Part shown: in pieces, positions 43,841 through 63,514 of the stretch | Layout of the letters: each line of letters begins with the position of its first letter | Numbering within the stretch: position 1 is the stretch's first letter | Assembly: GCA_045603225.1 (NCBI GenBank) | Contig: JAZULT010000100.1 | Location: 249-64,248, forward strand | Direction: 5' to 3' | DNA length: 64,000 nt | From: Clostridia bacterium | GTDB lineage: Bacteria; Bacillota; Clostridia; UBA1381 | Translations under genes and position numbers: made by a program | Notes under the pieces: model-generated | The model's database searches: none | What the model was told of the DNA's origin: nothing | What the model saw: the letters and a program-made list of their open reading frames with translations, nothing else

Positions 43841-43859
43841 TGTGTTGGGGGATGAGGTT

Positions 43860-45035
43860 ATGGGTATGAATGGTGTTCCTGCATCTGAAAGAACTCATAT
43901 AGGATTCTTCGGCAGAAGAAATGCAGGAAAGTCAAGTCTTATAAATGCAGTAACAGGTCAGGATTTATCGATTGTCTCTGACGTTAAGGGAACAACTACT
44001 GATCCTGTTCTGAAAACCATGGAACTTTTGCCTTTAGGACCTGTTGTCATAATTGACACGCCGGGGATTGATGATGAGGGTAAGCTTGGCGAAATGCGTG
44101 TCAGAAAGGCGTATCAGGCACTTAGGAAATGTGATATAGCTGTTGTTGTTATTGATAGTGTAACAGGTATTAGTGAAGAAGACAAAAAACTCATAGAGCT
44201 TATTAAAGAAAACAAAATACCTTATATTATATGCATGAATAAATGCGATTTGAAAATTCCTGATATTACGGAAGATAATGAAATTGCGGTAAGTGCCGAA
44301 AAGAATATAAATATTCATGAATTCAAAGAAAAGCTTGCATCATTTTCTAAAAAAAACACCGACAAGAAAATAATCGGTGACCGACTGAATGCAGGAGATA
44401 TTGTTGTTCTTGTTATTCCTCTTGATTCTTCAGCACCTAAAGGAAGAATTATACTTCCGCAACAAATGGTGCTTCGTGAGGTTCTTGATGCAAAAGCAAT
44501 AGCAATATGTGTTCAGCCTTCGGAGCTTTCGGATGCACTTGAAAATCTTTCAAAGAAACCGGTTGTTATAATAACTGACAGTCAGGTGTTCGGAGAGGTT
44601 TCAAAGCTTGTTCCGAATGATATATATCTTACTTCATTTTCGATTCTGATGCTTAATTATAAAGGTGAGCTTGATATGGCTTATCGTGGAGTAAAGGCTA
44701 TTGATAATCTTAAAGATGGAGACAAAGTTTTAATTGCAGAGGGATGTACGCATCATAGACAATGTGAAGATATAGGAAGTGTAAAAATTCCTAATCTTAT
44801 GAAAAAAAAGACGGAAAAAGAGATCATATTTGAGTTTACAAGCGGCGGAGATTTTCCTGATGATTTGTCAGAATATTCACTTGTGGTTCATTGTGGTGGA
44901 TGCATGCTTAACGAAAACGAAGTGAAGCGTCGCATGAATCATGCAAATTCAAAAGGGATTCCGGTCACAAATTACGGAATTACTCTTGCCTATATGAACG
45001 GTATACTCGAAAATGCAATGAAATGGTTTTATTAA
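43860..45035 (+). CDS. hydF: [FeFe]-hydrogenase maturation GTPase HydF
   Basis: G1 GRRNAGKSS, G3 DTPG, G4 NKCD, and a C-terminal CxHx(n)HCGGC cluster motif (GCTHH...VVHCGGCM). Confidence 0.9.
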   Translation: MGMNGVPASERTHIGFFGRRNAGKSSLINAVTGQDLSIVSDVKGTTTDPVLKTMELLPLGPVVIIDTPGIDDEGKLGEMRVRKAYQALRKCDIAVVVIDSVTGISEEDKKLIELIKENKIPYIICMNKCDLKIPDITEDNEIAVSAEKNINIHEFKEKLASFSKKNTDKKIIGDRLNAGDIVVLVIPLDSSAPKGRIILPQQMVLREVLDAKAIAICVQPSELSDALENLSKKPVVIITDSQVFGEVSKLVPNDIYLTSFSILMLNYKGELDMAYRGVKAIDNLKDGDKVLIAEGCTHHRQCEDIGSVKIPNLMKKKTEKEIIFEFTSGGDFPDDLSEYSLVVHCGGCMLNENEVKRRMNHANSKGIPVTNYGITLAYMNGILENAMKWFY

Positions 45036-45070
45036 AAAAGGTCCGGGGAATAAACTCCCCGAACTTTTTT
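45036..45070. terminator. Bidirectional intrinsic terminator between convergent hydF and the AraC gene
   Basis: The sequence is AAAAAGGTCCGGGGA-ATAAAC-TCCCCGAACTTTTTT. The stem has a GC-rich core with one mismatch, an A-run upstream and a T-run downstream. Confidence 0.7.
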
Positions 45071-45078
45071 GATTCCGG

Positions 45079-46047
45079 TCATACGTCTTTTTTTGTATAC
45101 TCTAAATAAGCGGGGGAAAAGTATTTGTGTCCGTGTTTTTTGGATTGAGGTGATATCATGTTTGCACGTTCAAATTTTCGATGCTGCAGTGGGGTACGGT
45201 CAATATATTTTCTGAAAATTCTCTCATAATACCGTATATCAGAATAACCAACAGCTTCAGCAATTTCTGATACCTTCATGTTGGTGTCTTGTAACAGCTG
45301 ACAGCTTTTGTTGATTCGTATTTTCTGCAGGTACTCTGCAAAAGAATATCCTGTTTCCTGCTTGAATTTTGAGCAAAAGTATTGTGGAGTGTAGTGAAGT
45401 AAACCACTGATTTCTTCTAGTGTTATTTTTTTGTAAAAGTTTTTTTCTAAATAATTTATAGCCTCATCCATTACAGAGCTTGTAGTGTTCTGAACTTGAG
45501 GATTCATGTACCTTAAAAGGTATATTAATACTTCAATAAGCTGAGATTTCAGTACCTTTAAATATCCAAACTCCGAACGGAAATATTCTGACTGCATATC
45601 AATAAGTGTTTTTTTTATCTTGTCATCATTTTCGTGGTATACCGAATTGATATATGTTTCTTTGGGTATATCACTTTTACACTGAATTTCGCGGCATTTG
45701 AAAATTTTAGTAATGTCATCATTATTTGATAATGATATATCCAAAAAGGATGGTCTGAAAAGTAAATTTATAAGTTTACACGGTGTATTCTCTATAGGAG
45801 TCAATGAGTGGTAAGAATCAAAGTCTATAATTGCAAAATCACCGGGAATAAGCGTTTTTTCATAGCCGTTAAAGTTGTGCTCTATGCTGCCGTCAAGTAT
45901 ATAAAAAAGCTCAATGAAATTATGAGAATGAAGAGTCTTGGTAGGTTGGGCAGTCTGATATTCAAGGGCAATTCCATCGGGAATGTAATAGTCATCTTTT
46001 GGTATTTTTTCTGTGTTTTGTTTTGTATCACTTATATTTTTAATCAT
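45079..46047 (-). CDS. AraC family transcriptional regulator (N-terminal cupin sensor, C-terminal double HTH)
   Basis: Cupin segment HSHNFIELFYILDG. C-terminal AraC HTH (VSEIAEAVGYSDIRYYERIFRKYIDRTPLQHR). Divergent from the SLH gene cluster. Confidence 0.9.
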   Translation of the reverse strand: MIKNISDTKQNTEKIPKDDYYIPDGIALEYQTAQPTKTLHSHNFIELFYILDGSIEHNFNGYEKTLIPGDFAIIDFDSYHSLTPIENTPCKLINLLFRPSFLDISLSNNDDITKIFKCREIQCKSDIPKETYINSVYHENDDKIKKTLIDMQSEYFRSEFGYLKVLKSQLIEVLIYLLRYMNPQVQNTTSSVMDEAINYLEKNFYKKITLEEISGLLHYTPQYFCSKFKQETGYSFAEYLQKIRINKSCQLLQDTNMKVSEIAEAVGYSDIRYYERIFRKYIDRTPLQHRKFERANMISPQSKKHGHKYFSPAYLEYTKKDV

Positions 46048-50561: not shown

Positions 50562-50574
50562 GGTGATAAGTAGC

Positions 50575-53500
50575 ATGAGTGGAATAATGAAGAGAATCAT
50601 AAGTATTGCAATCAGTGTATCTGTTCTTTTAAGCTTTTTCACTGCAGAAGCTGAAAAACGTGATTTTTCGGATGTTGATGAGACCTGTTTTGCTTATGAA
50701 GAAATAAATTATCTTTCAGATAAAGGTATTATAAGAGGGATAGGAGATGGTATATTTGCACCTGAGAATTTTGTAACAAGAGCTGATTTTGCAGTTATGG
50801 CTGATCGGGCAATGGAACTTAACGGTGGTGAGAATATTCAATTTTCAGATGTTTTTTTGTCTGATTATTACTATTATCCGGTGAAACGTGCAGCAGAGGC
50901 CGGTATAATAAAAGGTGTTGGTAACGGTGAGTTTAAACCGAAGCAAAATATAACAAAAGAAGAAGCAGCAAGCATTTTAGTGCGTTCATATGAGTCTCTT
51001 TATGGAGTACAAGATGGGGAGACGGTAAATTTAGCTGATGAAGATAAGATTTCAAACTGGGCAAAGGAAAATGTTAAAAAGGCAGTTTTATTGGGTTTTT
51101 TAGTTATTGATAACGACGTTGTAAATCCCCGGAAATATATGACAAGAGCAGAGACTGCTTATGCAATATCCAATTATCTTATGTTATTGTCTGTAAATGA
51201 CAACTGGGATATTGACAGACCATCAAGCTTTACTCAGACAACAGCAAGAGGAAATATCTTTCTTACGAGCATGAGCGAAAAACTTATAACCTTGAATACG
51301 GAGAAAAAATCGGTTGAGTATTATATCCGTGACTATTGGGGAAACGAGAAAGAATCGGGAAGTATTGTGATAACTGATAAAAAACATGTTTTTGATGTAT
51401 CTGATTATACCCCGGGATATTATGAGCTATATATTACAGCAAGAGACAGGGAGGGATTAAAAGAAGAAATTGCAAAAACATCATTTTGTGTTTTTGAGGA
51501 TTTTGATTTTAAAAACCTGGAGTATTCGCCTTTTGGTATAAATACCCATATAACAAGAGGTTCAAGCGGATGGAAGCCTGACCTTTTATACGAAGCATCT
51601 CTTGCAGGAATAAGACATATAAGAGATTCAGATGAATGGCATGGAGTTGAAAAACAAAAAGGTGTTTATACGGATACATGGGCATCTCACAGACAGATAA
51701 TGCAAAAGTATAATATAGATAATTTATGGGTATCTGCCTTTGTAAACCCGTTTTATGACCATAGCTCTACACCTTATACCGATGACGGCAGACTTGGATA
51801 TGCGAATTACTGTAAGGGAATCCGCGACATCTGGGGCGAGGATATGAAGTATATGGAGGTATATAATGAATGGTGGGGACCACAGTTCGGAGACCGCGGA
51901 AACGGTGAAGCAAATTCTTTGCCGGAAACCTTTGTACCATTGGTTAAAAAGACTTATGAGATTGTAAAGCCTCATCATCCTGATGTTGTTTTGATGCCAA
52001 CATTCTCAACTAATGCAAACCGTTATCAGCCGAACTGGAATACAAAGCTTTTAAATCTTGGTATTTTAGATTATATTGATGCAATTGCCTTACACGGATA
52101 TGCAGGAAATGATAAGACACCCGGGAAAACAGAGCCGGAAGGATCAATTGCAGCAACGGTTTCAGAGCTTAGAGAAGAGCTTGATGAAAAATATCCTGAG
52201 CGGGATATAGATATTTTCGTAACGGAAACCGGGTTTAATACAAGCACTAATAAATACGGTATAAGTGAAAAACTCGGAGGATGGTATGTACCTAGAATTT
52301 TCACAAGCTGTATGGCTTTGGGTGTTGATTATATCTGGTGGTATGACCTAATAGACGATGGAAACACAGATTCTGAGCATGAGGATAGGTTTGGGACATT
52401 GCGTGCTTTCGGAAGCGAGTGGGGGAACTATACTCCAAAGCCTACATATGTAGCATACGGAGCGTTTGCAAGATTAATTGCAGGGCAACGATTTGGTGAG
52501 AATAAAACAAATGGTGATATTTACTGGTATACCTATGAAGGTGAGGGTGAAACCACAAATGTTATTCATGCAAGAGATAATGTCAGAAAAAATGTAACAG
52601 TATATACATCATCTCCTGTTGAGGTTACAGACCTTATGGGCGGAAAAGAAGTTTATACTCCGATTGACGGAAAGCTTTATTTCACAATAAGTGGAGAATC
52701 TGTTTATATTAAAGGTGATATTGAAAAAATAGATGAGGGTGCACCGATAGATTTTTCAGTTACGGAAGAGGTTATTTTAGAGGAGGAATATGCAGTAAAT
52801 ATAGAAAATTCCGATGCTGATATAACTGTTTTAATTAATGGCAAGGAAGCGGAAAATACATTTACTCCTGATGTTTTGAGAAAAATGGGAGATGCAACTG
52901 TTATCGCAAAGTTATATAATGATGGCAAAGTATGCGGAAGAATAACGAGAGAGGTTACACCCGAAGAGAGATATAAAGTCAGCGGTGTTGGTGACCTTGA
53001 ATCAAATGATGTGGGAATTGACGGATTTATCAATGCGTATATTGAAAATTATTCACCCAAAACACTCCATGTTACCGGGGGCGCATGGACATTAGGTAAT
53101 AGAGAGGGAACCTTTATAACAGATGAAGAAATCTCGGGAAATTCAGCAAAAACCATAAAAATTCCGGTTGGAAGAGTTGAGCCAGGTAAAAAGTATGATT
53201 ATACTCTGCGTTTGCAGGTTGACGGAATAACTTCCGGGAAACGTGACCTTAAAGATACAATATCATTTAACACCGTAGAAAGGTTTACACCGGAAATTGA
53301 TGGAAAGGTTGATGAGGGATTAGAGAATTTAAGCTTTATGAACTTAGATGAAGGAACAGTTTCGTCTTTGATTGACGGAAGAAAGCATACCGGGCCATCA
53401 GATCTGGGTGGCAAAGGCTGGATGAGCTTTGATGATGAGTATCTTTACTGGCTTGTTTTAGTTACGGATGATGATCATAACACACAAGAAACAGGTGAGC

Positions 53501-53913
53501 TTATGTGGAGAAATGATGGATTGCAGTTTACTCTCTACTGTGAAAATTCAAAGGTTTATGACACTTCATCAAAATACTTTGAATTTGGAATAACCTTACG
53601 TGAGGAAGGCCCCGAAATGTGGCGCTGGATCACAATTGACGGTTTACCGGAGAACAAAGCAGAGATTCCGGGAGCGAAATTTGCAGCATCCCGTAATGAG
53701 GGGGAGAAAACCACATATTATGAGATAGCAATTCCATGGAAAACACTTTCAATTAATCCGACAATTGAGAAGAATATCCGATCAACTTTGTTAATTAACG
53801 ATAATGATTCGGGACAAAGAAAGAGCTTTTTAGAATGGGGAAGTGGTATCGGATATGGAAAAGATCCTGAAAAGTTTATAAAATACATTATTGCAGGAGG
53901 TAATACAAAATGA
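50575..53913 (+). CDS. SLH-anchored clan GH-A-like (TIM barrel) glycoside hydrolase with C-terminal CBM9-like sugar-binding domain
   Basis: Signal peptide and three SLH repeats (about 50659-51177). Candidate acid/base residue in VYNEWWG (Glu codon 51868-51870) and nucleophile in IFVTETG (Glu codon 52225-52227), about 120 residues apart as in clan GH-A. The C-terminus (WRNDGLQFTL...YYEIAIPWKTL) resembles CBM9. Confidence 0.75.
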   Translation: MSGIMKRIISIAISVSVLLSFFTAEAEKRDFSDVDETCFAYEEINYLSDKGIIRGIGDGIFAPENFVTRADFAVMADRAMELNGGENIQFSDVFLSDYYYYPVKRAAEAGIIKGVGNGEFKPKQNITKEEAASILVRSYESLYGVQDGETVNLADEDKISNWAKENVKKAVLLGFLVIDNDVVNPRKYMTRAETAYAISNYLMLLSVNDNWDIDRPSSFTQTTARGNIFLTSMSEKLITLNTEKKSVEYYIRDYWGNEKESGSIVITDKKHVFDVSDYTPGYYELYITARDREGLKEEIAKTSFCVFEDFDFKNLEYSPFGINTHITRGSSGWKPDLLYEASLAGIRHIRDSDEWHGVEKQKGVYTDTWASHRQIMQKYNIDNLWVSAFVNPFYDHSSTPYTDDGRLGYANYCKGIRDIWGEDMKYMEVYNEWWGPQFGDRGNGEANSLPETFVPLVKKTYEIVKPHHPDVVLMPTFSTNANRYQPNWNTKLLNLGILDYIDAIALHGYAGNDKTPGKTEPEGSIAATVSELREELDEKYPERDIDIFVTETGFNTSTNKYGISEKLGGWYVPRIFTSCMALGVDYIWWYDLIDDGNTDSEHEDRFGTLRAFGSEWGNYTPKPTYVAYGAFARLIAGQRFGENKTNGDIYWYTYEGEGETTNVIHARDNVRKNVTVYTSSPVEVTDLMGGKEVYTPIDGKLYFTISGESVYIKGDIEKIDEGAPIDFSVTEEVILEEEYAVNIENSDADITVLINGKEAENTFTPDVLRKMGDATVIAKLYNDGKVCGRITREVTPEERYKVSGVGDLESNDVGIDGFINAYIENYSPKTLHVTGGAWTLGNREGTFITDEEISGNSAKTIKIPVGRVEPGKKYDYTLRLQVDGITSGKRDLKDTISFNTVERFTPEIDGKVDEGLENLSFMNLDEGTVSSLIDGRKHTGPSDLGGKGWMSFDDEYLYWLVLVTDDDHNTQETGELMWRNDGLQFTLYCENSKVYDTSSKYFEFGITLREEGPEMWRWITIDGLPENKAEIPGAKFAASRNEGEKTTYYEIAIPWKTLSINPTIEKNIRSTLLINDNDSGQRKSFLEWGSGIGYGKDPEKFIKYIIAGGNTK

Positions 53914-55040
53914 ATAAAATAAAAAAATTACTTGTGTGTGTTTTAACATTTGTAAGTTTTTGTTCTGCTTCATCTGCGGCACCTTTTGAAAAGATTACTT
54001 CCGGAAAAGATAATTCTCCCAAAGAAAATGTATTTCGTATTATAGGGACAGATATGGAATTTATCCTTCTTGATACATCAGAAAATCAGGAATCTAAGTT
54101 TTTACTTATGGCAAAAAGCTATTTTCCTAAAAGGTCTTACGGTAAAAACCAACGTTTCGACCCGGAGGATCCGGGAAATATTGCATATTTTTTAAATAAT
54201 GAGTTTTTGGAAGAAGGTATAAAAGACGGCTTTACAAAAAAACTTTATAAATTACCCCAAGAGGTAGTAGAGAGTATTGATAAAAACCATGTATGGGAGA
54301 CTGAAGCAGGAAAAGCGACAGGCAACTGCCCGGAAAGCTACACCTTTAAAGCAGGAATTTCGCTTTTATCCCAGACTGAATTCTTAAAGTATCAAAGCAA
54401 AATCGGAATGATTGATGAATTTTCAAATCTTAAAGATTCACCGACATTTGTCGGCTGGTGGACAAGAACGGGTTCTGAGACGTCAGAAATGATTTGTATA
54501 AGACCTGTTACCGGTAAAACACAGACCTATGGTTGGGCATCAGGCGATGCAGGGCTTAATTTCAGACCGCTATTCTGGGTTGATATTGACTTTTTCAAAA
54601 ATGTTAAAATTGATATCGAAACCGCAGGAGAAAACGTAAAGGCAGAAATTAAAAAATACTATTCTGTAGATGAACTTAAAAAACTTTATTCTCTCGGCAG
54701 AATCTATGATTGTCTCGGTTTTACACCCGAAGTTGAGATTTCAAATGTGGATGTGTCAAAAGATCCCGGTGCATTAAGAAAGATTAATATAAAAGCAGAC
54801 TATAAAAACAATCTCACGGAAGAAATTTCGGGAAACATTATTGCCGTAAAATATACATCGGGCGGATTCCCTAGACAAATGGTAAGCATACCGTATACAT
54901 TGTCAGGGAAGGAAAATAAAACAGTAAGCTTAGATTTTAATTTAAAATCGCCTTTGGTAACCGGAGAATACATTAAGTTATTCTACTCATCAGTTTCTGA
55001 CAGGATGGGGAATACATCAAATTCAGTTATTATAAATTAG
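53910..55040 (+). CDS. Secreted protein with one DUF6273-like module and a C-terminal Ig-like domain
   Basis: Signal peptide. Module motifs FILLD...SKFLLMA, NHVWETE, YTFKAGISLLSQTEF, WWTRT and FRPLFWVDIDFF. AGGAGG RBS. ATGA overlap with the upstream gene. Confidence 0.8.
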   Translation: MNKIKKLLVCVLTFVSFCSASSAAPFEKITSGKDNSPKENVFRIIGTDMEFILLDTSENQESKFLLMAKSYFPKRSYGKNQRFDPEDPGNIAYFLNNEFLEEGIKDGFTKKLYKLPQEVVESIDKNHVWETEAGKATGNCPESYTFKAGISLLSQTEFLKYQSKIGMIDEFSNLKDSPTFVGWWTRTGSETSEMICIRPVTGKTQTYGWASGDAGLNFRPLFWVDIDFFKNVKIDIETAGENVKAEIKKYYSVDELKKLYSLGRIYDCLGFTPEVEISNVDVSKDPGALRKINIKADYKNNLTEEISGNIIAVKYTSGGFPRQMVSIPYTLSGKENKTVSLDFNLKSPLVTGEYIKLFYSSVSDRMGNTSNSVIIN

Positions 55041-55056: not shown

Positions 55057-57642
55057 ATGAAGAAAGTAATTTCACAGATTTTAGCTTTATCGGTTTTAAT
55101 GTCTTACTCTGTAAGCTTTGCTGAAGATGATGTTTCAGAAATATCAGAGCCGCAACTGAAAATTATGACAGTGTCAGGAGAAGAAGTTTCATATGGAGAG
55201 ACTCTTTATGCTACAGTTTCAGGAGAGATGAGCTCAGTTTTGTGGCAAAGAACGGACGGTAAAACGACAATTGATTTAGGCGAGAGTACAGAATATGTTG
55301 TAACAGAAGCGGATATGGGATATTCTATTCAGGTAAGCGCGGGTGGATATATATCAGCGCCTGTAGAAATTGAAAGTTATTATAAAAATGTTGACGGAAC
55401 AGATAAATCATACGCTACAAATGCTACATATACAATGAACCGCCGCTATTCTAATCCTGATCGTAAATTTTCTGTAAAAGGGAGCTCAAAAGAATTCGTT
55501 TTAGCAGACACTTTCAACAATGAAGAATCAAAGTATTTTATTGTGGCTGATAACGGCTATGGTCCATACACATATGCAGCAAACGGAACTGTTTCAGCGG
55601 AAGTTACAAATGATGGAGGAACAGAGACTGTCTATCAGACTCCTATATGGGATCCTGAAAAAGTAAATGAAGATACAATTGATAAAAATAAGTTTTTTGC
55701 ATACTGGATTAATTCAAAAACCGATGGTGGCTTTTTAACTCCTGAAAATGCGTCAGGTTTACCGCAGAAAATGATAGACTATATCAACTTCGACCACATC
55801 TGGAGAACTGAAGGAACGCCTAACTGGAAAACCTGCTCATCTCCGAAAGAGTCATGGGAAAGCTACACATTTTCTGCCGGAGTGACGATTCCGTCATATT
55901 CTGAGATTCTCTATTATGAAAATGTCGGATTTTCTACAAAGGATATTGACGAGTCAGGTCTTAGCTCAGCAAAAAGAAAAATATGGAGTAGAACTCCTGT
56001 CGATACCAATAAAAGTGCTGCAGGTGTTGGTGACCGTGACAAGTGGGCATTAAACTTTTATGTATCCTATGATACATCAGATACGAATGTCAGAACAAAT
56101 CATACTGTATCAGATAACTTGTTTGTAAGACCTGTATTTTATTTAAAAGACGGATTCTTTGCAAATGTTCCGATAGATTTATCTACTGCAGGAGCAGATA
56201 TAATAGACGAAATCAAAAAACAGGATACAGCGGATTTATTCAATATTTACACGGCGCAGGAAATTGTAGACATTTTAGGACTAGAACCTCCCGAAGGCTA
56301 TATATTTTTATCGGATATTAAAATAAAAGTAAAGGGCATGGGAGAACCTGAATACGGCAAAACCTTAGTTCCTGAATTTACATATGGTGAAAACAACAAA
56401 TATCCGTTAAAGGATTATAAGATAGAATGGTTATCAGGAGAGGATACGGTATCTGATGCAATAGATGAGTATATTGTAACCGAGGCTGACTGCGGTAAAA
56501 GTATAAGATTTAAGATATCAGTTACAGATGAGAACGGAAACGAGGTAACAGCTGAATCGGAGTCTGTAAATATTCCAACTCTTTATAACAGTCCTGTATT
56601 TCCAAACTATGCGACAAGCGGAATAAAGGATTCAAAGCAAGAAAACGTTTTTACTGTAGATGGGAAAGAATTTACATTAGTGGACACCTTTGATAATAAA
56701 AAATCTACTTTTTACGTTGTTGCAAACGATTCTTACGGAAACTATAATATGACAACTGTGAATATGGATGAAAGTGATGATACAAGCATAATAAGCTGGC
56801 TGAATAATTCATTCATAAAAGACGGAAACGGAGATAATAAACTTCCTGACGGAATTTCAGACTTTATCGACTATGACCATATATGGCTTAGCGAAGAGGC
56901 GGATGCATCTCCGTTAGGTCAGCTTGAATATTCTTTCAGGGCAGGAGTAACAATTCCGTCGGTTTCAGAGCTTGTAAGATATAAAGACATCTTAGGTTAC
57001 GCAGAACCGGATTCAAACTATTGGACAAGAACAGTTCCTGACTGGAAAAATACTTCAAAGCCGGAAGCAGAATATCTGTTCACTATTCAAGGATTGAAAA
57101 CAGTGGATTCTCTGAAGGTTTCGCATTGGGAATTACCGTCAGGAACCGGAGTGAGACCTCAGTTTTATTTAAAGGAAGATTTCTTTAAAAATGTAAAAAT
57201 TGATATAGAAAAAGCTGGAGAAATGGTCATAGAACGGATGAAAGACAGATACAGAGTGGAAGATCTTACGCATTTATATGATGTTGAGATTTTGGAAAGT
57301 AAGGGATTTTTACACAGCCTTGAGCTGGATGTTGAATTTTTATCAGAAGGTGTAACTATAGATTCTCTTTTGGGTGTAGAAACATTTGAGGCAGAAATCA
57401 ACTTAAAATCCAATACAGAAAATACGGTGTCGGGTCTATTGATTTTCAGCTTATACGATGAGGATATGAGTACAAAAGCCATAACATTTAAAAAGATTAC
57501 AGCGGGTGGAAACAGTAATGCGTCAGTTACAATGACCCTTTCTGATTTAGAGGGTGTAACGGACGAAGCTAATGCAAAGGTGATGTTCTGGAACAATGCC
57601 TTTGATATGGAAGTTTTAAACGCACATCACAGTTTTAAGTAA
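55057..57642 (+). CDS. Secreted protein with two (small beta domain + DUF6273-like module) units and a C-terminal Ig-like domain
   Basis: Signal peptide. Modules at about 55459-56286 and 56638-57291 carry DHIW(R/L)(T/S)E, (F/R)AGVTIPS.SE, W(S/T)RT and VRP.FYLK(D/E).FF motifs. Each is preceded by a roughly 75-aa domain containing YG.TL...Y.VTEAD.G.SI. Confidence 0.8.
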   Translation: MKKVISQILALSVLMSYSVSFAEDDVSEISEPQLKIMTVSGEEVSYGETLYATVSGEMSSVLWQRTDGKTTIDLGESTEYVVTEADMGYSIQVSAGGYISAPVEIESYYKNVDGTDKSYATNATYTMNRRYSNPDRKFSVKGSSKEFVLADTFNNEESKYFIVADNGYGPYTYAANGTVSAEVTNDGGTETVYQTPIWDPEKVNEDTIDKNKFFAYWINSKTDGGFLTPENASGLPQKMIDYINFDHIWRTEGTPNWKTCSSPKESWESYTFSAGVTIPSYSEILYYENVGFSTKDIDESGLSSAKRKIWSRTPVDTNKSAAGVGDRDKWALNFYVSYDTSDTNVRTNHTVSDNLFVRPVFYLKDGFFANVPIDLSTAGADIIDEIKKQDTADLFNIYTAQEIVDILGLEPPEGYIFLSDIKIKVKGMGEPEYGKTLVPEFTYGENNKYPLKDYKIEWLSGEDTVSDAIDEYIVTEADCGKSIRFKISVTDENGNEVTAESESVNIPTLYNSPVFPNYATSGIKDSKQENVFTVDGKEFTLVDTFDNKKSTFYVVANDSYGNYNMTTVNMDESDDTSIISWLNNSFIKDGNGDNKLPDGISDFIDYDHIWLSEEADASPLGQLEYSFRAGVTIPSVSELVRYKDILGYAEPDSNYWTRTVPDWKNTSKPEAEYLFTIQGLKTVDSLKVSHWELPSGTGVRPQFYLKEDFFKNVKIDIEKAGEMVIERMKDRYRVEDLTHLYDVEILESKGFLHSLELDVEFLSEGVTIDSLLGVETFEAEINLKSNTENTVSGLLIFSLYDEDMSTKAITFKKITAGGNSNASVTMTLSDLEGVTDEANAKVMFWNNAFDMEVLNAHHSFK

Positions 57643-57674: not shown

Positions 57675-60600
57675 ATGAAAAAAACTTTATCAGCCATGTT
57701 GGCTACGGCAATGCTTATAACAGCAATGCCAATGAGTGTAATTCACGCAGAGACTAATGATACGTATTTTACCGAGCAGAGAACAGTTGACTACGATTCT
57801 GCATGGGGAGCTAATGCGTGGAAAGTTATTTCGAGTCAGACTACAAATACCGACTATACATTCATAGTAAAAAATGGTGAAAATAATGAGTCGTTTTCTC
57901 TCTTGGAAGTTGATGCGGACGGAACATCATCTAAGTATTTTGTAATAGCAAATCAAACATACGGCAAACGTCAGCAGTTCGCAGTAAATGCCGATGTTGC
58001 AAATTACTGGAAAAATCCCACAACAGAGGAAAAAACAGCATTAAACAACAATATCGATTCAATTGCAAGCAAATATAATACATATTGGTTAGACGGTCAA
58101 CATTTTGAAAAAGGTTGGAGCTTAAATGGATATTCATATCTTTTCGGAACATCCCCTTTGATTTCTTATATAGATAATTCCCATGTGTGGACATGTGAGC
58201 CAACCCCAAATGCAGCAGTTCCTAATGATAAGTATACATTTACAGCAGGTATTGCTCTGCCGTCAGCAAGTGAAATTAATACATATGCTGACAGATTTGG
58301 TATTGCAGAAACAGGGGCAGACGGATTTGCAACAAGAACTATGATAAACTATAATAACGGAACTAACCGTTATATAGGTGTCGCAAAGCCATGGTCAACA
58401 AATCAATGGTATCCGGCACAGACTTTATTGCCTCAGACAGCAAGCTTGCAAATTCGACCTGTATGTTGGTTAAATGAAGACTTTTTTGCAAATGTGCCTG
58501 TTGATTTAGCTACTGCAGGAGCAGCTGTTAAACAGGAAATTAAAAAACAGGATGTATCAGAGTTACTTGAAATCTATTCAGAAACAGATCTTGAGAACTA
58601 TCTCGGAATGGATATTTACACAGTTACAATTAAAACTCTGTCAGGTGAAGCTATTGCCTACGGTGAGACTTTGAAAGCTTCAGTTGACGGTAAGGATTCT
58701 TCTGTAACATGGCAGAGAGTAGACTCTGAAGGTAATGCAGAAGAAATTGCAAACGGAACAGAGTATATTGTAACTGAGGCTGATATGGGATATTCTATTC
58801 AGGCAACTGACGGAAAAGTTACATCAGCTCCGGCACTGATTGAAAATTATGTTAAAACTTATAATACAAACAGTAGCTATAAGATGAATAAAACATCAGA
58901 TGCAAATGCTTTATTTAAAGTGAAGGATAGCGAAAGAGAGTTTGTTCTTGCAAAAACATTCAATAATAAAGAGTCGAAGTATTTTGTAGCCGCAAATGAG
59001 ACTTATGGTACAAAGCAATGGTATACAGACGGAAGAGAAGTAACATTGTCAGATCAAATTACAAAGGTGACACTTACACCAATATGGAACCCAAATGCCG
59101 GGACTGATGATGTGTTAGCATACTGGATGAATGGTACATTTATTAAATCCGGAAACGGCGGAAAACTCCCTCAGGAAATTATAAATTATATCAATATGAA
59201 CCATATCTGGAGAACAGAGGGTACTACAACCAGACCGTCAGATAATGTAGAAAGTTATGTATGTACAGCAGGTGTTGTGGCACCATCATTTTCCGAATTA
59301 CAGCATTATACAAAAATTGGTTATAATGTATTAAATTATGACGGAACTCCGGTATCGGCACAGAAAATATTCAGTAGAACTCCCGTTGACAGACCAAGTG
59401 CATCGGCATATCAGTGGTCTTTGAGTTTCTATTTAACAAGTACAAGTTCTAATGATACACAGTGTTACTCAAACCATACAGGAGGCGCTGCAAACGGTAT
59501 AAGACCTGTATTCTACTTGAAAGACGGATTTTTTGCAAATGTCGCAATTGATCTTAAAACTGCAGGTGCAGACGTTTTAGAAGAAATCAAAAAAGAAGAT
59601 ATTGATGCACTTCGTGAACTTTACACAGATTCAGAGCTTACAACATATTTAAGCATTGACTTAAGTCAGTATCCTGAGATTAAAACATATAGCGGTGAAG
59701 ATTTAGCATACGGTGAAACAGTTTATTCTACTGTTTCAGATGCAACATGGAAGATTAATAACGAGGAGATCAGCGTTTCAAATAATTCTTATATTATTAC
59801 AGAAGCAGATGCAGGAAAGACAATTGCTGTAGAGTATGAAAAAGACGGAAAAGTTTACAAAAACAGCTATGATATTCCGGCACTTGAAAATTCACCTCAT
59901 TCACCGAACAATGCAATTACTGCAAGTAAGGAATCAGAAAATATTATTAAAGTCGACGGCAGAAGTTTTACGGTTGTTGAAGACTTTAACAATAAAAAAT
60001 CAACATTTTTTGTTGTTGCAAATGAGATTTACGGAAACTACAGTGTTACATCAAGAAAGATGAACCCGGAAGCTGACGGTAATGTAATGAAGTATCTGAA
60101 CGGTACATTTAAAACTTCCGGAACGGAAGATGGCAAGAAATTACCTCAGAATATTATAAACTATATTGACAATGACCATATCTGGTTGACTGAAGGTACA
60201 CCTCTCTATACTGCAGACCCTATGGAAAGCTACACATTTACTGCCGGAATTTCAATTCCGTCTGTAAATGAAATAAAACGATACAAAGATACCTTTGGTT
60301 GGTATGCAACAGCATTTGACGGAAGTACATTTGCCCCATACTGGACAAGAACGGCAGCAAACCACGCAACAGGCGAATGGGTATATGTTGCAAATGGTGG
60401 TGCACAATCTGATACACAGGTTGTTATGTCTCACTGGAACCTTGACGGTTCAACAGGTATAAGACCTGAATTCTATTTAAATGAAGACTTCTTCAGAAAT
60501 GTAGCAATTGACAATTTCAGCGACTTAAGACGTGACAGTGCATTAACCGAGATGCTGACATCACGTTATTCAATGGAAGAGATGTATGCGCTCTACGGAC

Positions 60601-61070
60601 CAAAGGGTCAGGACATATTTGATAAGCAGGGACTTCTGGATTTAGGTTTTATATCAGACGGTTCAAACCTTGAAGTGACATTTAAAAACGCAGACGATGA
60701 GGAATTTAATACATTAGAAGGTCAGACGGAAATTTGTGCAGAAATTGTAGTTACAGCTGGTAAAAAAGCCGTAAATACTATTGCAATATTTGCTTTATAT
60801 GATGACGAAGGAAGGCTTGTTGCTACAAACTTTGCAAACGTTAATGCGGCATCAGGCGAGAGTAAGAATGTTCCGGTTAAACTGACAGGACTTTCAAATC
60901 TTACTTCTGATTATACAGCAAAAGTAATGTTTGTGAAAGACCTTTCGACTTTGGCACCGGATTTTGATAAAGTTTATTTTACAGAAACAGAGATTAATTC
61001 TGTAGAGACTTTAAGCTTTGATATAGGCGAAGAAACAGATAATTCAGCCGGCGGTTACAATTTTTTTTAG
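57675..61070 (+). CDS. Secreted protein with three DUF6273-like modules, two small beta domains and a C-terminal Ig-like domain. It ends at a TAG immediately after a T8 run.
   Basis: The ATG at 57675 follows aaaaggag. Signal peptide. Modules at about 57849-58607, 58911-59657 and 59937-60641. The stop TAG is at 61068-61070. Confidence 0.8.
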   Translation: MKKTLSAMLATAMLITAMPMSVIHAETNDTYFTEQRTVDYDSAWGANAWKVISSQTTNTDYTFIVKNGENNESFSLLEVDADGTSSKYFVIANQTYGKRQQFAVNADVANYWKNPTTEEKTALNNNIDSIASKYNTYWLDGQHFEKGWSLNGYSYLFGTSPLISYIDNSHVWTCEPTPNAAVPNDKYTFTAGIALPSASEINTYADRFGIAETGADGFATRTMINYNNGTNRYIGVAKPWSTNQWYPAQTLLPQTASLQIRPVCWLNEDFFANVPVDLATAGAAVKQEIKKQDVSELLEIYSETDLENYLGMDIYTVTIKTLSGEAIAYGETLKASVDGKDSSVTWQRVDSEGNAEEIANGTEYIVTEADMGYSIQATDGKVTSAPALIENYVKTYNTNSSYKMNKTSDANALFKVKDSEREFVLAKTFNNKESKYFVAANETYGTKQWYTDGREVTLSDQITKVTLTPIWNPNAGTDDVLAYWMNGTFIKSGNGGKLPQEIINYINMNHIWRTEGTTTRPSDNVESYVCTAGVVAPSFSELQHYTKIGYNVLNYDGTPVSAQKIFSRTPVDRPSASAYQWSLSFYLTSTSSNDTQCYSNHTGGAANGIRPVFYLKDGFFANVAIDLKTAGADVLEEIKKEDIDALRELYTDSELTTYLSIDLSQYPEIKTYSGEDLAYGETVYSTVSDATWKINNEEISVSNNSYIITEADAGKTIAVEYEKDGKVYKNSYDIPALENSPHSPNNAITASKESENIIKVDGRSFTVVEDFNNKKSTFFVVANEIYGNYSVTSRKMNPEADGNVMKYLNGTFKTSGTEDGKKLPQNIINYIDNDHIWLTEGTPLYTADPMESYTFTAGISIPSVNEIKRYKDTFGWYATAFDGSTFAPYWTRTAANHATGEWVYVANGGAQSDTQVVMSHWNLDGSTGIRPEFYLNEDFFRNVAIDNFSDLRRDSALTEMLTSRYSMEEMYALYGPKGQDIFDKQGLLDLGFISDGSNLEVTFKNADDEEFNTLEGQTEICAEIVVTAGKKAVNTIAIFALYDDEGRLVATNFANVNAASGESKNVPVKLTGLSNLTSDYTAKVMFVKDLSTLAPDFDKVYFTETEINSVETLSFDIGEETDNSAGGYNFF
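61061..61068 (+). repeat. T8 homopolymer at the junction of two reading frames
   Basis: The sequence is acaaTTTTTTTTaggagag. The upstream ORF reads AAT TTT TTT TAG. The -1 frame reads TTA GGA GAG CCA... and is open through to 62554. Confidence 0.95.
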
Positions 61071-61135
61071 GAGAGCCAATTGCAATTTCCGTAACTGCTG
61101 ATACTTCAAACGGTGGAACTGATTTCGCCTATGAG

Positions 61136-62554
61136 GTGACGGACTTTTACGGTGATGTTGTAAAAAGGAACGGAAAAAAATATTGCGGAGAGGGAACAGT
61201 TACAGTTTCCCTCTCAGGTCTTGATACAGGTTATTATGAAATAACAGCATATAATAACTTGTCAGATGAAAAAGAGCAATTGGCTAAGACTTCATTTTCA
61301 ATATTAGAAGAACATGAATTCGGGTCGGCAGAGGATTCATATTTTGGTATGAATATGCATATGTACAGAGGCTCTACCGGGGATAAAAACGGTTGGGGGT
61401 ATAATTTAATTAAAAACGCCTATAGTATCGGAGCTATGACGATTCGTGACGGAAGAGAATGGACTGATGCTGAAAACCCAAAAGGAACCTATAACTTTAA
61501 ATACGCTCAGTTTATGGATATGATAGAAAATCGCAACATGGACTGGATTATGATAACAGGTTTTACTAATCAAAACTATGATAACGGTTTACCGCCGTAT
61601 ACCGATACAGGACGACAGGGATTTGCAAACTATTCAAAAGCAGCATTTGACCAGTATTCGGGATTTTTAAAATATCAGGAAATGTTTAATGAATGGTGGA
61701 AATATCGTGATGACGGCATAGAGCAAGTAAAAGGAACATACGATGAGTATCTTGAACTTGCAAAAATTGTCTATGAGACTATAGATAAAGAAAACTATCC
61801 TGATGCGGTTTTGTTTGGTGAGCTTAGTGCTGATATTGATGGCTGGTCAAAGCCTTTGATAGAGTCAGGTCTTACAGAATATATAGATGCTGCAGCATTG
61901 CATCGATATGGAATAAGCTACAGAGAAGAAAGTCCTGTACATCTCCCGGAGGATGATGTTGTAACCTCAGAAATCAAAAAAATCAGAGAATTGCTTGATG
62001 CAAATGGAGGAGAGAATAAACCAATCTGGTTAACGGAAACAGGATACACCACAACAATTAACAAATACGGTGTATCAGAATATGAACAAGCAAAATATTT
62101 ACCGAGACTTTTATTAAACTTTATTTCAGAAGGTGCCCAAAAAGTTTTCTGGTACGACCTTTTAGATGATGGAGTGGCGGATTATGCAGATAAAGGAGCA
62201 ACACACGAATATCATTTTGGACTGTTGCGTTCGAAGTTAAATGAATTGGGAGGATATTCTCCAAAACCTGCATATGTTACATATGGTGTTTTAACCCGTG
62301 CTTTAGATGGAAAGTTTTTTTCTGAAAAGCAAATAAAAGATGAGAATATCTACCGCTATATATTTAGAAACGATAATTCTGAAACATCGGCTTTATGTGC
62401 TGTAAGCAATACAGAGGTTACATTAAAAGCTGATAACAAATTGACGGTTACAGATATTATGGGAAGAAAATCAGAATTAATTCCTGAAAACGGGGAGATT
62501 ACCTTTATTTTAACAGGAGAAATGATTTATATTGACGGAGAATTTTCACTTTAA
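61136..62554 (+). CDS. Clan GH-A-like hydrolase paralog lacking signal peptide and SLH domains, probably the 3' part of a frameshifted or fused gene
   Basis: Paralog of residues about 240-700 of the 50575 protein (GYYEITAYNN vs GYYELYITARD, AKTSF, FNEWWK, IWLTETGYTT). The frame is open from 61043. The GTG at 61136 has no obvious RBS. Confidence 0.6.
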   Translation: MTDFYGDVVKRNGKKYCGEGTVTVSLSGLDTGYYEITAYNNLSDEKEQLAKTSFSILEEHEFGSAEDSYFGMNMHMYRGSTGDKNGWGYNLIKNAYSIGAMTIRDGREWTDAENPKGTYNFKYAQFMDMIENRNMDWIMITGFTNQNYDNGLPPYTDTGRQGFANYSKAAFDQYSGFLKYQEMFNEWWKYRDDGIEQVKGTYDEYLELAKIVYETIDKENYPDAVLFGELSADIDGWSKPLIESGLTEYIDAAALHRYGISYREESPVHLPEDDVVTSEIKKIRELLDANGGENKPIWLTETGYTTTINKYGVSEYEQAKYLPRLLLNFISEGAQKVFWYDLLDDGVADYADKGATHEYHFGLLRSKLNELGGYSPKPAYVTYGVLTRALDGKFFSEKQIKDENIYRYIFRNDNSETSALCAVSNTEVTLKADNKLTVTDIMGRKSELIPENGEITFILTGEMIYIDGEFSL

Positions 62555-62558
62555 TGTA

Positions 62559-62588
62559 TTGACATATTAAAAACATTTGTGATATAAT
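62559..62588 (+). promoter_or_regulatory. Sigma-A type promoter upstream of the isomerase gene
   Basis: TTGACA (62559-62564), 18 nt spacer, TGaTATAAT (-10 at 62583-62588). Confidence 0.5.
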
Positions 62589-62624
62589 TGCTCATAATAA
62601 AAGATGCGAAAGGGAAATGATATT

Positions 62625-63479
62625 ATGAAAATAGGATTATCAGCAAACATGTACCAAAATGCATATGACCGATGGGGAGAATTTCGGTACAAGAAATTAA
62701 AAGAGCATGGATTTTCGGCAATGGATTTTGGAATGGCTAACACAGATTCTGCCATTTACATAGCATCAGAAGAAGAGCTTCGCAAAATGATGGATAATGA
62801 AAAGCATTTAGCAGAAGAGGCGGAAATTGAGATTTCTCAGGTTCACGGTCCATGGCGTTGGCCTGCTTGTGATTTGACAGAAGAAGACAGAAAAGAACGG
62901 ATGGAGAAAATGAAAAAATCCATTTACGCGACTTATCTTTTAGGCTGTCAAAACTGGGTTATTCATCCTATAATGCCATACGGCGTTGAAGAAATTGATA
63001 CGGAAAATGCTGAAAAAACATGGGAATTAAATCTTTCTTTTATGAGGGAACTTTTAAAAACTGCGAAAGGATATGGAGTTACAATATGTCTTGAGAATAT
63101 GCCTATGCATAAGTTTTCTATTGCAAAGCCCAAAGATATTTTGAAAATGGTCAAAACGATTAATGATGATAATTTTAAAATTTGCCTGGATACAGGACAT
63201 GTCAGTGTATTTCCTGATTTATCAGTAGGGGATGAAGTAAGAGCTTTAGGGGAAGAAATCCGCACACTTCACATCCATGATAACCGATTTGAAAGAGATT
63301 TGCACTTACCTCCGTTTTATGGAGAAATTAATTGGGCTGACTTTGCAAAGTCTTTAAAAGATATTAATTATGATGGGGTGTTCTCTCTGGAAACTTTGCC
63401 TCCGGCAAATCTTGATGATGATATATTTGAAGCTTTATGTATTCAGCTTTATAAAATATCAGACAGAATTATAAACTGA
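62625..63479 (+). CDS. Sugar phosphate isomerase/epimerase (xylose isomerase-like TIM barrel) family protein
   Basis: The ATG at 62625 follows gaaaggga. The layout is typical of AP endonuclease 2/xylose isomerase-like TIM barrels (ICLENMP, LDTGH, LHIHDN). Confidence 0.8.
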   Translation: MKIGLSANMYQNAYDRWGEFRYKKLKEHGFSAMDFGMANTDSAIYIASEEELRKMMDNEKHLAEEAEIEISQVHGPWRWPACDLTEEDRKERMEKMKKSIYATYLLGCQNWVIHPIMPYGVEEIDTENAEKTWELNLSFMRELLKTAKGYGVTICLENMPMHKFSIAKPKDILKMVKTINDDNFKICLDTGHVSVFPDLSVGDEVRALGEEIRTLHIHDNRFERDLHLPPFYGEINWADFAKSLKDINYDGVFSLETLPPANLDDDIFEALCIQLYKISDRIIN

Positions 63480-63514
63480 AAATTAATCCCATTGATAAAA
63501 AAAACCGCTTAGCT

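Follow-up and report, generated by a model that had tools for sequence, protein, structure and literature searches.

To our knowledge, confirmed programmed -1 frameshifts in bacterial genes that are neither mobile nor of phage origin are few, namely dnaX, cdd, copA and csoS2. In E. coli dnaX, a chromosomal gene, an in-phase X_XXY_YYZ heptamer (A_AAA_AAG), flanked by a defined SD on its 5' side and a stem-loop on its 3' side, gives two products, tau and gamma, in a fixed ratio from one mRNA, the shorter of which results from the shift. HIV-1 gag-pol, from a eukaryotic virus and with a downstream stem-loop, has structural and enzymatic parts joined by a -1 shift on U_UUU_UUA. A glycoside hydrolase gene in two ORFs is represented by the archaeal GH29 gene fucA1 of Sulfolobus solfataricus, which is said to be split inside the catalytic enzyme at an A_AAA_AAT site. 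This alpha-L-fucosidase is expressed by programmed -1 frameshifting, at 5% in E. coli (PMC1616953). In the mobile IS3 family, mostly with the help of a hairpin or pseudoknot stimulator, a -1 shift joins the upstream orfA to a start-less catalytic ORF to produce orfAB. Shigella mxiE and Thermus dnaX reportedly carry runs of about nine T or A at an ORF junction. One extra nucleotide there leads to an extended fusion protein (PMC5009743). The heptamers U_UU.U_UU.Y are among the efficient -1 sites of bacteria, as determined in E. coli, and IS elements make use of them, some in the form U_UU.U_UU.C (PMC4066793). In the limited selection of literature that we searched, no bacterial -1 frameshift was found in genes for GH39 or other glycoside hydrolases or for surface proteins.

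The window analysed here, a stretch of 64,000 nucleotides from a Clostridia bacterium (contig JAZULT010000100.1), contains two overlapping forward-strand ORFs, 57675-61070 and 61067-62554, which we regard with good but not full confidence as one gene recoded by a programmed -1 frameshift; in the absence of expression data the shifting itself is inferred. A preliminary description of the locus had taken both ORFs for a single unit of about 1630 codons, a view supported here with an exact length of 1626 codons (181.8 kDa) by an invariant heptamer in at least 11 lineages, coding constraint that sets in ahead of the first start codon, relatives fused in one frame and a modelled structure. As in dnaX, a non-mobile chromosomal gene with an in-phase X_XXY_YYZ site would give two products in a fixed ratio from one mRNA, and the heptamer may have an SD-like element on its 5' side; unlike in dnaX, the site is U_UUU_UUN, conserved structure on its 3' side was not found and the shift would give the longer, catalytic product. 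As in the IS3 family, an upstream ORF would be joined to a start-less catalytic ORF, but within a cell-surface glycan-degradation locus that has no transposase. The likeness to fucA1 lies in the two-ORF hydrolase gene with a -1 shift, whereas in the window a bacterial GH39-like domain would be added to a separate multi-module secreted protein and, unlike in fucA1, the zero-frame product is probably functional alone. A run of T at the junction is shared with mxiE, but most of the lineages described below have only six T's and it is the phase of the heptamer that is conserved. One related locus (L172) has exactly the U_UUU_UUA of HIV-1, a comparison that remains an analogy. Finally, the domain order of the predicted trans-frame product, with a collinear GN[IV]F...Ig-like...barrel junction, exists in two distant relatives (P0030, P0036) and in a paralog within the window (50563-53913), all of which have it in one reading frame and need no recoding.

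Results

Anatomy of the junction

The zero-frame ORF (57675-61070, forward strand) has 1131 codons, encodes a 125.6 kDa protein ending ...GGYNFF-TAG and can be bounded at 57642 or 57675; the likely start is ATG 57675, with AAGGAG before it and a Sec-type signal peptide (MKKTLSAMLATAMLITAMPMSVIHA) after it. Three repeated modules of about 300 aa, for which no Pfam family was found, and a C-terminal beta-sandwich follow. Its 3' end reads GGC GGT TAC AAT TTT TTT TAG. As the preliminary description stated, this ending contains a T8 run (61061-61068), within which T_TTT_TTT (61061-61067) has the X_XXY_YYZ form in phase with the upstream frame, and the -1 frame is open through 62554. Direct reading places the zero-frame TAG (61068-61070) immediately 3' of the heptamer; the -1 frame (FFLGEPIAISVTADTSNGG...) has no stop from 61043 to its own stop at 62552-62554. 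The heptamer alone is not rare, with eight in-phase T_TTT_TTN occurrences in the 19,718 codons of the window, yet the -1 frame closes after 1-4 codons at all of these except that at 61061, where it continues as a long ORF of 495 codons. Neither a promoter-like nor a terminator-like site was found at the junction. A two-module paralog of the upstream ORF (55057-57642, forward strand, 38% identity) ends ...AKVMFWNNAFDMEVLNAHHSFK and has neither a GNNFF-type junction nor a hydrolase. Its type of C terminus is also seen in many library representatives, while about a dozen cluster representatives of the upstream family (50% identity) end in G[YN]NF[FL] plus 0-6 residues.

On this arrangement, most ribosomes would halt at TAG 61068 and release the 125.6 kDa non-catalytic protein, while a fraction would shift by -1 on the heptamer, with two tRNA-Phe re-pairing on overlapping TTT codons. 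Alternatively, the P-site tRNA-Phe may slide while TAG waits in the A site. Shifted ribosomes would next read TTA (Leu) and run on through the hydrolase, giving a 1626-aa, 181.8 kDa fusion (...GGYNFF-LGEPIAISV...) with a predicted GluC peptide across the junction, TDNSAGGYNFFLGE. Since the only signal peptide is on the upstream ORF, frameshifting would export the catalytic domain; Sec signal peptides are likewise present in all upstream ORFs of the related loci and in none of the hydrolase ORFs. Whether the shift is ribosomal or transcriptional can only be inferred: it is probably ribosomal, and transcriptional slippage is possible on T8, where one U added by RNA polymerase would lead to the identical protein and may contribute in the lineages with such a tract.

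Conservation of the slippery heptamer in related loci

The upstream-gene/hydrolase pair was found in at least 11 lineages of gut Clostridia, at the loci window, L004, L173, L001, L174, L002/L003/L009, L006-L008, L005, L010, L011/L170/L171, L168, L169 and L172, and 17 contigs from NCBI, JGI, ENA and Logan assemblies were compared. Identity to the window ranges from 42 to 90% for the hydrolases and from 31 to 93% for the upstream proteins. Every related locus keeps an in-phase T_TTT_TTN and has its hydrolase in the -1 frame. The tract is T8 in seven loci (window, L004, L173, L001, L174, L168, L169), T6C in most of the others and T6A in L172, the lineages with six T's being L002/L009, L006, L005, L010, L011 and L172. 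A stop follows the heptamer directly in the window, L004, L173, L001, L174, L002/L009, L168 and L169, and 1-6 codons later in L172, L006, L010, L011 and L005. The heptamer is invariant despite upstream proteins as low as 31% in identity, and AAT and TTT are always the codons used; judged from these alignments, its conservation in such diverged orthologs is greater than the protein sequence alone would demand. A metagenome-contig scan with the hydrolase alignment returned no close relative (best 31%) and so added no further junctions.

The survey also bears on a shift made mainly by RNA polymerase, in which slippage on T8 adds one U to some transcripts, as in mxiE and Thermus dnaX. This reading is favoured by the seven T8 loci, by the fact that one extra U yields exactly the same fusion protein, by the established precedent of the mxiE extension (PMC5009743) and by the under-representation of UUUUUUU in E. 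coli genes, possibly due to slippage (PMC4066793). However, most lineages have just six T's followed by C or A, there is no conserved homopolymer of about nine or more, and the clade as a whole retains the in-phase X_XXY_YYZ pattern but not the length of the run. Six T's are below the length required for efficient slippage by bacterial RNA polymerases. We therefore consider a mainly transcriptional shift unlikely, although it cannot be dismissed, and retain ribosomal frameshifting as the preferred reading.

Four mechanisms had been left standing by the preliminary description, two of which, ribosomal shifting and transcriptional slippage, survive, while a recent break or miscall and phase variation are effectively excluded. 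A defect or switch of this kind (a miscall, a recent inactivating frameshift creating a pseudogene, or a phase-variable homopolymer) could draw on the proneness of T8 to indels and on one related contig, L173, that is clearly degraded. Yet the 17 contigs, independent of each other, share the same frame relation, and replicate contigs agree in tract length (L002/L003/L009, L006/L007/L008, L011/L170/L171 and window/L004/L173). No T9, T7 or in-frame "ON" allele was seen among the 17, and the T6C and T6A tracts that most lineages carry are not hypermutable. Counting the tract in relatives, which had been proposed as a check, revealed T6C and T6A besides T8 and not a uniform T8, with the frame relation unchanged. 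Purifying selection moreover acts on the hydrolase, whose catalytic motifs do not vary. Between the window and L004, all 4 codon changes within the first 23 codons of the -1 frame are synonymous, and over 78 codons 15 changes are synonymous and 4 non-synonymous; by this codon comparison, the start-less stretch after the heptamer is under purifying selection. Sequencing error, pseudogene and phase variation were thus rejected on contig agreement, constant tract length and selection, and we give them hardly any credence.

Start codons in the hydrolase frame

The first ATG, GTG or TTG of the -1 frame in the window, and the annotated start, is GTG 61136-61138, the Val codon of a conserved YEVTD, which would give a product of 472 aa, a protein absent from the records in an exact look-up. 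This codon sits 23 codons into conserved coding sequence and is matched by GTA in L004, L001 and L002 and by GTT in L173. By direct reading no GGAGG-like motif lies 5-12 nt upstream, in line with the earlier remark that it lacks an RBS. GTG 61136 was rejected as the true start, being unconserved and inside a beta-strand (see below). The sole plausible site of independent initiation in the window is AGGAG (61069-61073) followed after 5 nt by an ATT (61079-61081) that is in frame with the hydrolase; L001 has GTG as the next codon (GCA 61082-61084 in the window), with a good AGGAG 8 nt upstream. As a conserved RBS this AGGAG was also rejected: it is made up of codons for L-G-E in a single subclade and is missing elsewhere, the same position reading TAAATGAG, CGAAGCGAG, CGCAGCGAG and AGAATAGAG in other lineages.

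These elements speak for two separate genes, in which the hydrolase would initiate or reinitiate near the junction as a cytoplasmic protein of about 55 kDa and the T run would merely encode a Phe-Phe end. Besides the AGGAG/ATT of the window, a GTG or ATG occurs 5-8 codons past the slip site in four lineages (L001, L174, L002/L009, L005), so that independent initiation is possible there, and all hydrolase entries in the protein database are called as separate proteins of 411-492 aa. Against this, the SD is not conserved across lineages, and eight lineages have no ATG, GTG or TTG for 23-71 codons past the heptamer, the distance from the slip site being 23 codons in the window, 71 in L004, 46 in L006, more than 50 in L010, 40 in L011, 43 in L168, 42 in L169 and 27 in L172. 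By chance, about 45% of lineages should have a GTG, ATG or TTG within 10 codons (an estimate from typical codon frequencies); 4 of about 13 do. Two genes would also fail to account for the constancy of the heptamer, the motif that continues in exact register over the junction, the relatives fused in one frame and the missing signal peptide. We judge this explanation very improbable, and continue with the two ORFs as one recoded gene.

In-frame relatives and homology across the junction

An exhaustive phmmer search of a representative library identified three proteins, known as protein sequences only, in which modules and hydrolase share one frame, all of them more distant relatives: P0030 (1783 aa), P0036 (1406 aa) and P0031, a fragment. 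A word-indexed protein search with a junction-spanning query gave no match spanning both halves, and no fused close relative was found in the protein database. Aligned to P0031 by BLASTP, the trans-frame fusion of the window gave a single HSP (E 9e-37, query 28-441) that crosses the junction at 230/231. The in-frame distant homologs have in common the motif G-N-[IV]-[FY]-x-x-x-E-(P) directly before the Ig-like domain, and the -1 fusion restores it in exact register (GNNFF|LGEP). Position 5 of the motif varies in the in-frame homologs and is fixed as F or L in the loci with a -1 hydrolase. With a profile of the in-frame homologs, the true fusion gains 9-13 bits in seven lineages, above the maximum of 6.2 bits among 30 control upstream segments, and no variant displaced by one or two residues reaches this gain. 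The subclade to which the window belongs (GGYNFF) has a degenerate form of the cross-junction motif, with a gain of just -0.3 to +2 bits. P0020 and other free-standing homologs carry a signal peptide of their own, placed before LGNIF.

The paralog at 50563-53913 (forward strand), with SLH, a GH39-like domain and CBM9, shows in one frame an RGNIF...Ig-like...barrel order that is collinear with the trans-frame product. The preliminary description had based homology across the junction on this protein; the sequence it quoted (ARGNIFLTSMSEKLITLNTEKK ... GYYELYITARD) is real and lies in this ORF. However, the BLASTP alignment of the -1 ORF with the paralog starts only at YEVTD, 2 residues before GTG 61136, and this pair alone is insufficient as proof; the homology is instead supplied by the other relatives.

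Fold and family of the hydrolase

The -1 frame region (61067-62554, forward strand; 495 codons and a stop) lacks a signal peptide as well as a conserved start codon. It comprises an N-terminal Ig-like beta-sandwich (approximately 61061-61306) beginning at the FF of the heptamer, a (beta/alpha)8 barrel (approximately 61343-62260) and a C-terminal beta-sandwich (approximately 62315-62551), all on the forward strand. N230 and E231 of the NEWW motif (61688-61699) and E346 of the TETG motif (62033-62044) are invariant in alignments of 22 homologs. From general knowledge of clan GH-A, we take the Glu of NEWW to be the acid/base and that of TETG the nucleophile. A PDB profile search with the hydrolase retrieved 5jvk_A (E 8.9e-27). 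Single-sequence AF2 of the fusion was unusable (pLDDT 40) and an MSA-based model was used (pLDDT 85, pTM 0.90), for which Foldseek gave 5jvk_A (E 2.5e-29, TM 0.72/0.76), PslG being next. 5JVK is a GH39 enzyme of B. cellulosilyticus (PMC6933502), and the fold of barrel plus beta-sandwich matches GH39 structures. Pfam and NCBIfam searches with the window hydrolase gave no match, including to Glyco_hydro_39 (PF01229), while homolog P0019 carries a precomputed PF01229; the domain is therefore named GH39-like and not a proven member, and glycosidase activity and substrate are inferred at most.

Three strands of the AF2 model precede or include V46, the residue encoded by GTG 61136: 21-23 (FFL, across the junction), 29-34 and 41-48, the last of which contains it. 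As modelled, the residues upstream of this GTG are structurally needed by the hydrolase. The signal-peptide check and the model bear out the earlier expectation that translation from this GTG would yield a protein without a signal peptide and without the first strand or strands of the Ig-like domain.

Possible stimulators of the proposed shift

No conserved RNA structure was detected 3' of the heptamer: RNAalifold gave -0.5 kcal/mol without covarying pairs, no stem-loop or pseudoknot conserved across lineages was found downstream, and Rfam had no match. Single-sequence folds differ between lineages; that of the window has z = -2.4, with hairpins from +2 and about +30 nt. Upstream, GGCGG (61050-61054, forward strand) lies 6 nt before the heptamer and may act as an SD-like stimulator, its position being occupied by GGAGG (3), GAGG (1) or GAGGG (2) in six relatives. 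SD-like elements 6-17 nt upstream are those searched for as -1 stimulators (PMC4066793), but the element is imperfect in the window and confounded with conserved Gly codons. As the usual stimulators are undemonstrated, the efficiency of frameshifting, itself only inferred, could be very low.

Discussion

We tentatively propose, well short of even odds, that this stimulator-poor -1 site is ancient in a gut Clostridia clade and sets the stoichiometry between a non-catalytic, secreted or surface-located glycan-binding protein and a version of it with a GH39-like catalytic domain; that a fixed ratio of binding-only to catalytic protein is the purpose remains an inference. Lineages may differ in machinery while reaching one outcome, as E. 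coli and Thermus do for dnaX, with ribosomal slippage on U6C and U6A, and RNA-polymerase and/or stop-adjacent P-site slippage on U8-UAG.

If the recoding is real, annotation would have to be corrected, as the public assemblies examined all call a separate hydrolase with an arbitrary start that falls between the junction and a point 71 codons further on. The site variants present in nature (U8-UAG, U6C-UAA, U6C-sense and U6A) would form a series for the study of frameshifting with no evident stimulator. The locus would be a rare, new programmed frameshift in an ordinary bacterial gene, and a conserved case in uncultured gut Clostridia where recoding would decide whether a catalytic domain is exported.

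Architecture of the junction between a modular secreted protein and a GH39-like hydrolase

The upstream ORF (57675-61070) encodes a 1131 aa product that displays a signal peptide, three repeated modules of about 300 aa and a C-terminal beta-sandwich, and no match to curated families was obtained for it. Its start is most likely the ATG at 57675, which is preceded by AAGGAG and opens a typical Sec signal peptide. A two-module paralog (55057-57642, 38% identity) lies directly upstream and ends without a hydrolase. The motifs FVLxDTFNNxxSxYFV, HIWxTEG and G-[IV]-RPxFYLxxDFFxNV recur in the modules of both genes (57675-61067 and 55057-57642); such modules, for which neither Pfam nor NCBIfam has a matching model, are common in the long secreted proteins that gut Clostridia make and form an uncharacterised family, possibly with a glycan-binding role.

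The -1 ORF (61067-62554) likewise has no match in Pfam or NCBIfam. A profile of its homologs matches PDB 5jvk_A (E 8.9e-27), a Bacteroides cellulosilyticus GH39 enzyme (PMC6933502), and Foldseek with an MSA-based AlphaFold model of the hydrolase (pLDDT 85, pTM 0.90) retrieves 5jvk_A first (E 2.5e-29, TM 0.72/0.76) and PslG, another GH39 enzyme, next. As the NEWW and TETG motifs are in addition invariant in 22 homologs, we refer to the product as GH39-like, with an N-terminal Ig-like beta-sandwich, a (beta/alpha)8 barrel and a C-terminal beta-sandwich. In the paralog at 50563-53913, which is encoded in one frame, the GH39-like unit stands between SLH domains in front and a CBM9 behind. Between that gene and the module genes sits a 376-aa ORF (53910-55040) without family match, which has counterparts at the equivalent position in the related loci L001 (383 aa) and L002 (386 aa).

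The preliminary description named a T8 tract with a zero-frame stop and an open -1 frame, and it is correct in each of these points; the tract occupies 61061-61068. The zero frame enters the junction as GGC GGT TAC AAT TTT TTT TAG, with the stop codon at 61068-61070, while the -1 frame, open since 61043, reads TTA GGA GAG CCA ATT GCA from 61067 and terminates at 62552-62554. A T_TTT_TTN heptamer on its own is not unusual, with eight in phase in 19,718 codons across the window; each of the remaining seven is followed by a -1 stop within 1-4 codons, and only the heptamer at 61061 leads into a 495-codon ORF. The junction itself has no promoter-like or terminator-like site, and the nearest good promoter match beyond it is at 62559-62588 (sigma-70-type, perfect TTGACA, 18 nt, TATAAT, upstream TG), between the hydrolase stop and a xylose-isomerase-like TIM-barrel gene (62604-63479), which suggests that the transcription unit of the recoded gene ends here.

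Elsewhere in the window (36.8% GC), the flanking genes are anaerobic Firmicute housekeeping genes (Mfd/TRCF, IF-2, HydF, radical-SAM maturase, GdpP, phosphoglucomutase and SNF2 helicase). Two other same-strand ORF pairs overlap by about 80-100 nt (8201-9568 with 9471-10883, and 21070-22260 with 22181-23308), likely through over-extended starts in a mechanical ORF list.

The heptamer and the frame relation are conserved in related loci

All 14 database homologs of the hydrolase are entered as separate proteins (279-492 aa), and their annotated starts are scattered. Their contigs explain this scatter, as they carry the gene pair with the hydrolase in the -1 frame. This pairing of the hydrolase with a preceding gene for a multi-module secreted protein recurs in uncultured gut Clostridia, where at least 11 distinct lineages have it; MAGs from the Hadza gut and from water deer colon are among them. 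Identity to the window's hydrolase is 90% in L004, whose raw reads are SRR29381459, 77% in L001, 61% in L002/L003/L009, 52% in L006-L008, about 45% in L005, L010 and L011/L170/L171, and about 42% in L168, L169 and L172; L173 is about 92% identical to the window at the nucleotide level, and the pair is also present in L174. Among GTDB r232 representatives, none has a hydrolase more than 61% identical to that of the window. The upstream proteins are homologous at all loci (31-93% identity).

In every locus the C-terminal motif G-[YN]-N-F-[FL] of the upstream protein is coded AAT TTT TTN, which yields an in-phase T_TTT_TTN, and the hydrolase lies in the -1 frame. The heptamer occurs as T8 followed by TAG or TAA (seven loci), as T6C, where the next codon is either TAA or a sense codon and, in the latter case, a stop comes 5-6 codons on (U6C-UAA in L002, U6C-GAA in L006), and as T6A in L172 (T_TTT_TTA, 1219-1225, then GAA TAG). 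Tract lengths are identical between replicate contigs from independent projects in four lineages, and no in-frame T-tract allele was seen among the related loci. This conservation pattern rules out sequencing error, a pseudogene formed by a recent break, and phase variation of the tract.

Where T6C is not directly followed by a stop, the zero frame continues for 5-6 codons, giving EASQL-stop, AASQL-stop or GVSRLA-stop (L006 4864-4881, L010/L011 about 4996-5013, L005 843-863). Since this extension overlaps the -1 codons R-S-E-P-I/A, it forms a short dual-coding stretch, within which GAGCC is invariant in those lineages. L173 (JGI 3300029705) is a degraded locus that matches the window at 43550-45082, 59498-59967 and 60157-63504; about 14.4 kb that would link the HydF gene to the final third of the upstream gene are absent, and with them signal peptide and modules, and the hydrolase carries an in-frame nonsense codon (YL-stop-LAK; Glu in the window). 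Such a state is consistent with hydrolase decay after loss of the upstream part, or it could reflect a chimeric metagenome assembly.

The -1 region appears to be translated without a conserved start

GTG 61136 is the earliest ATG, GTG or TTG in the -1 frame, and no Shine-Dalgarno-like sequence precedes it at proper spacing. It is the Val codon of YEVTD, and as the codon reads GTA or GTT in L004, L173, L001 and L002 we regard it as a chance start codon that is not kept in relatives. The AGGAG at 61069-73 was also rejected as a ribosome binding site, being merely the Leu-Gly-Glu codons of one subclade and missing in the others. The first canonical start lies 23 codons past the slip site in the window, 71 in L004, 46 in L006, more than 50 in L010, 40 in L011, 43 in L168, 42 in L169 and 27 in L172, and 5 in L001 and L174, and 8 in L002/L009 and L005. 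The stretch before the start is conserved as protein (FF[LR]x-E-P-...-DG-YFSYEVTD); between window and L004, all 4 changes in the first 23 codons are synonymous, and the first 78 codons hold 15 synonymous against 4 non-synonymous ones. This pattern of substitution points to coding constraint on the -1 region.

In the structural model, strands are formed by residues 21-23 (F-F-L, across the junction, local pLDDT about 64) and 29-34 (ISVTAD). GTG 61136 corresponds to V46, inside strand 41-48 and past these two, so a protein started there would lack about two and a half N-terminal beta-sandwich strands. All upstream ORFs have a signal peptide and the hydrolase ORFs none, while free-standing and SLH-linked homologs are secreted. 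Independent initiation of the hydrolase, from ATT 61079 in the window or from GTG in L001 and others, is possible as a side route; it leaves unexplained, however, the invariant heptamer, the exact register of the motif described below, the fused relatives and the absent signal peptide.

Homology extends across the proposed slip site

In distant homologs the hydrolase unit follows a signal peptide or other domains in frame, and they share G-N-[IV]-[FY]-x-x-x-E-(P) directly ahead of the Ig-like domain (e.g. GNVYSNGEPVRFKV, GNIFMPGEPISFNL and, in Bacillus gobiensis, LGNIFLKNESSAFTV). In the -1 fusion this motif reappears without insertion or loss of a residue (GNNFF/LGEPVQFRI in L169, GYNFF/LGEPIAISV in the window). 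With a profile built from 15 in-frame homologs, the true fusion gains 9-13 bits over the downstream part alone in seven lineages; 30 upstream control segments reach at most 6.2 bits, and fusions shifted by 1 or 2 residues also stay below the true fusion. In the GGYNFF subclade, to which the window belongs, a Tyr stands in place of the conserved Asn, which limits the gain to -0.3 to +2 bits; the case for the window therefore rests on junction orthology and not on the motif it carries itself.

When a junction-spanning query was run exhaustively against 1.84 billion representatives, distant relatives emerged whose modules and hydrolase share a single frame: P0030 (1783 aa), in which a signal peptide and three modules lead through ...EVGNIFTDADDVKIRINS... 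to the GH39-like unit, P0036 (1406 aa) and the fragment P0031. Aligned to P0031 by BLASTP, the window fusion yields a single HSP (E 9e-37, query 28-441) that spans the junction at 230/231. These relatives are the strongest single result of the comparison and, with the HSP crossing the junction, they establish the fused architecture as a natural protein, to which the frameshifted clade stands as a derived or sister state.

Mechanism and predicted products

The evidence fits programmed -1 frameshifting, for which the comparative case is strong and there is no experimental demonstration. The U_UU.U_UU.Y heptamers fall within H_HH.U_UU.Y, a class that is efficient in E. coli; even with no stimulator they shift there at more than 0.1%, and IS elements make use of them (PMC4066793). 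An added U from RNA polymerase slippage cannot be excluded in T8 lineages, including the window, where it would give the identical fusion protein and has a precedent in mxiE (PMC5009743); most lineages, however, carry just six T's. As the invariant feature is the in-phase heptamer, we favour ribosomal shifting, to which we would assign rather more than half of the total probability. P-site slippage while TAG awaits its release factor cannot be excluded either. In L172 the A-site tRNA would be Leu, not Phe, and the trans-frame junction residue could differ (NNFL/R or NNFF/R).

No conserved RNA structure was found downstream of the heptamer. An SD-like element lies 6 nt upstream as GGAGG, GAGG or GAGGG in six relatives and as GGCGG in the window, overlapping conserved Gly codons. 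As no stimulator has been demonstrated, frameshift efficiency is possibly low. The window site has the defining sequence-level features of -1 PRF and lacks the usual, non-obligatory downstream structure. It resembles dnaX and IS3 orfAB in its inferred mode of action. T_TTT_TTA of L172 is the HIV-1 gag-pol heptamer. The closest likeness is the archaeal alpha-L-fucosidase fucA1, a glycoside hydrolase that is made through -1 frameshifting (PMC1616953); our literature search brought up no bacterial case in a glycoside-hydrolase or surface-protein gene. For detection of the fusion (1626 aa), a GluC junction peptide, TDNSAGGYNFFLGE, is expected, the tryptic equivalent being too long.

The bulk product would be a 125.6 kDa non-catalytic protein terminated at TAG, and the minor product a 181.8 kDa catalytic fusion. 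Such a majority and minority outcome is likely, with expression and catalysis both inferred, and by inference there may be a functional reason for a fixed ratio of the two products.
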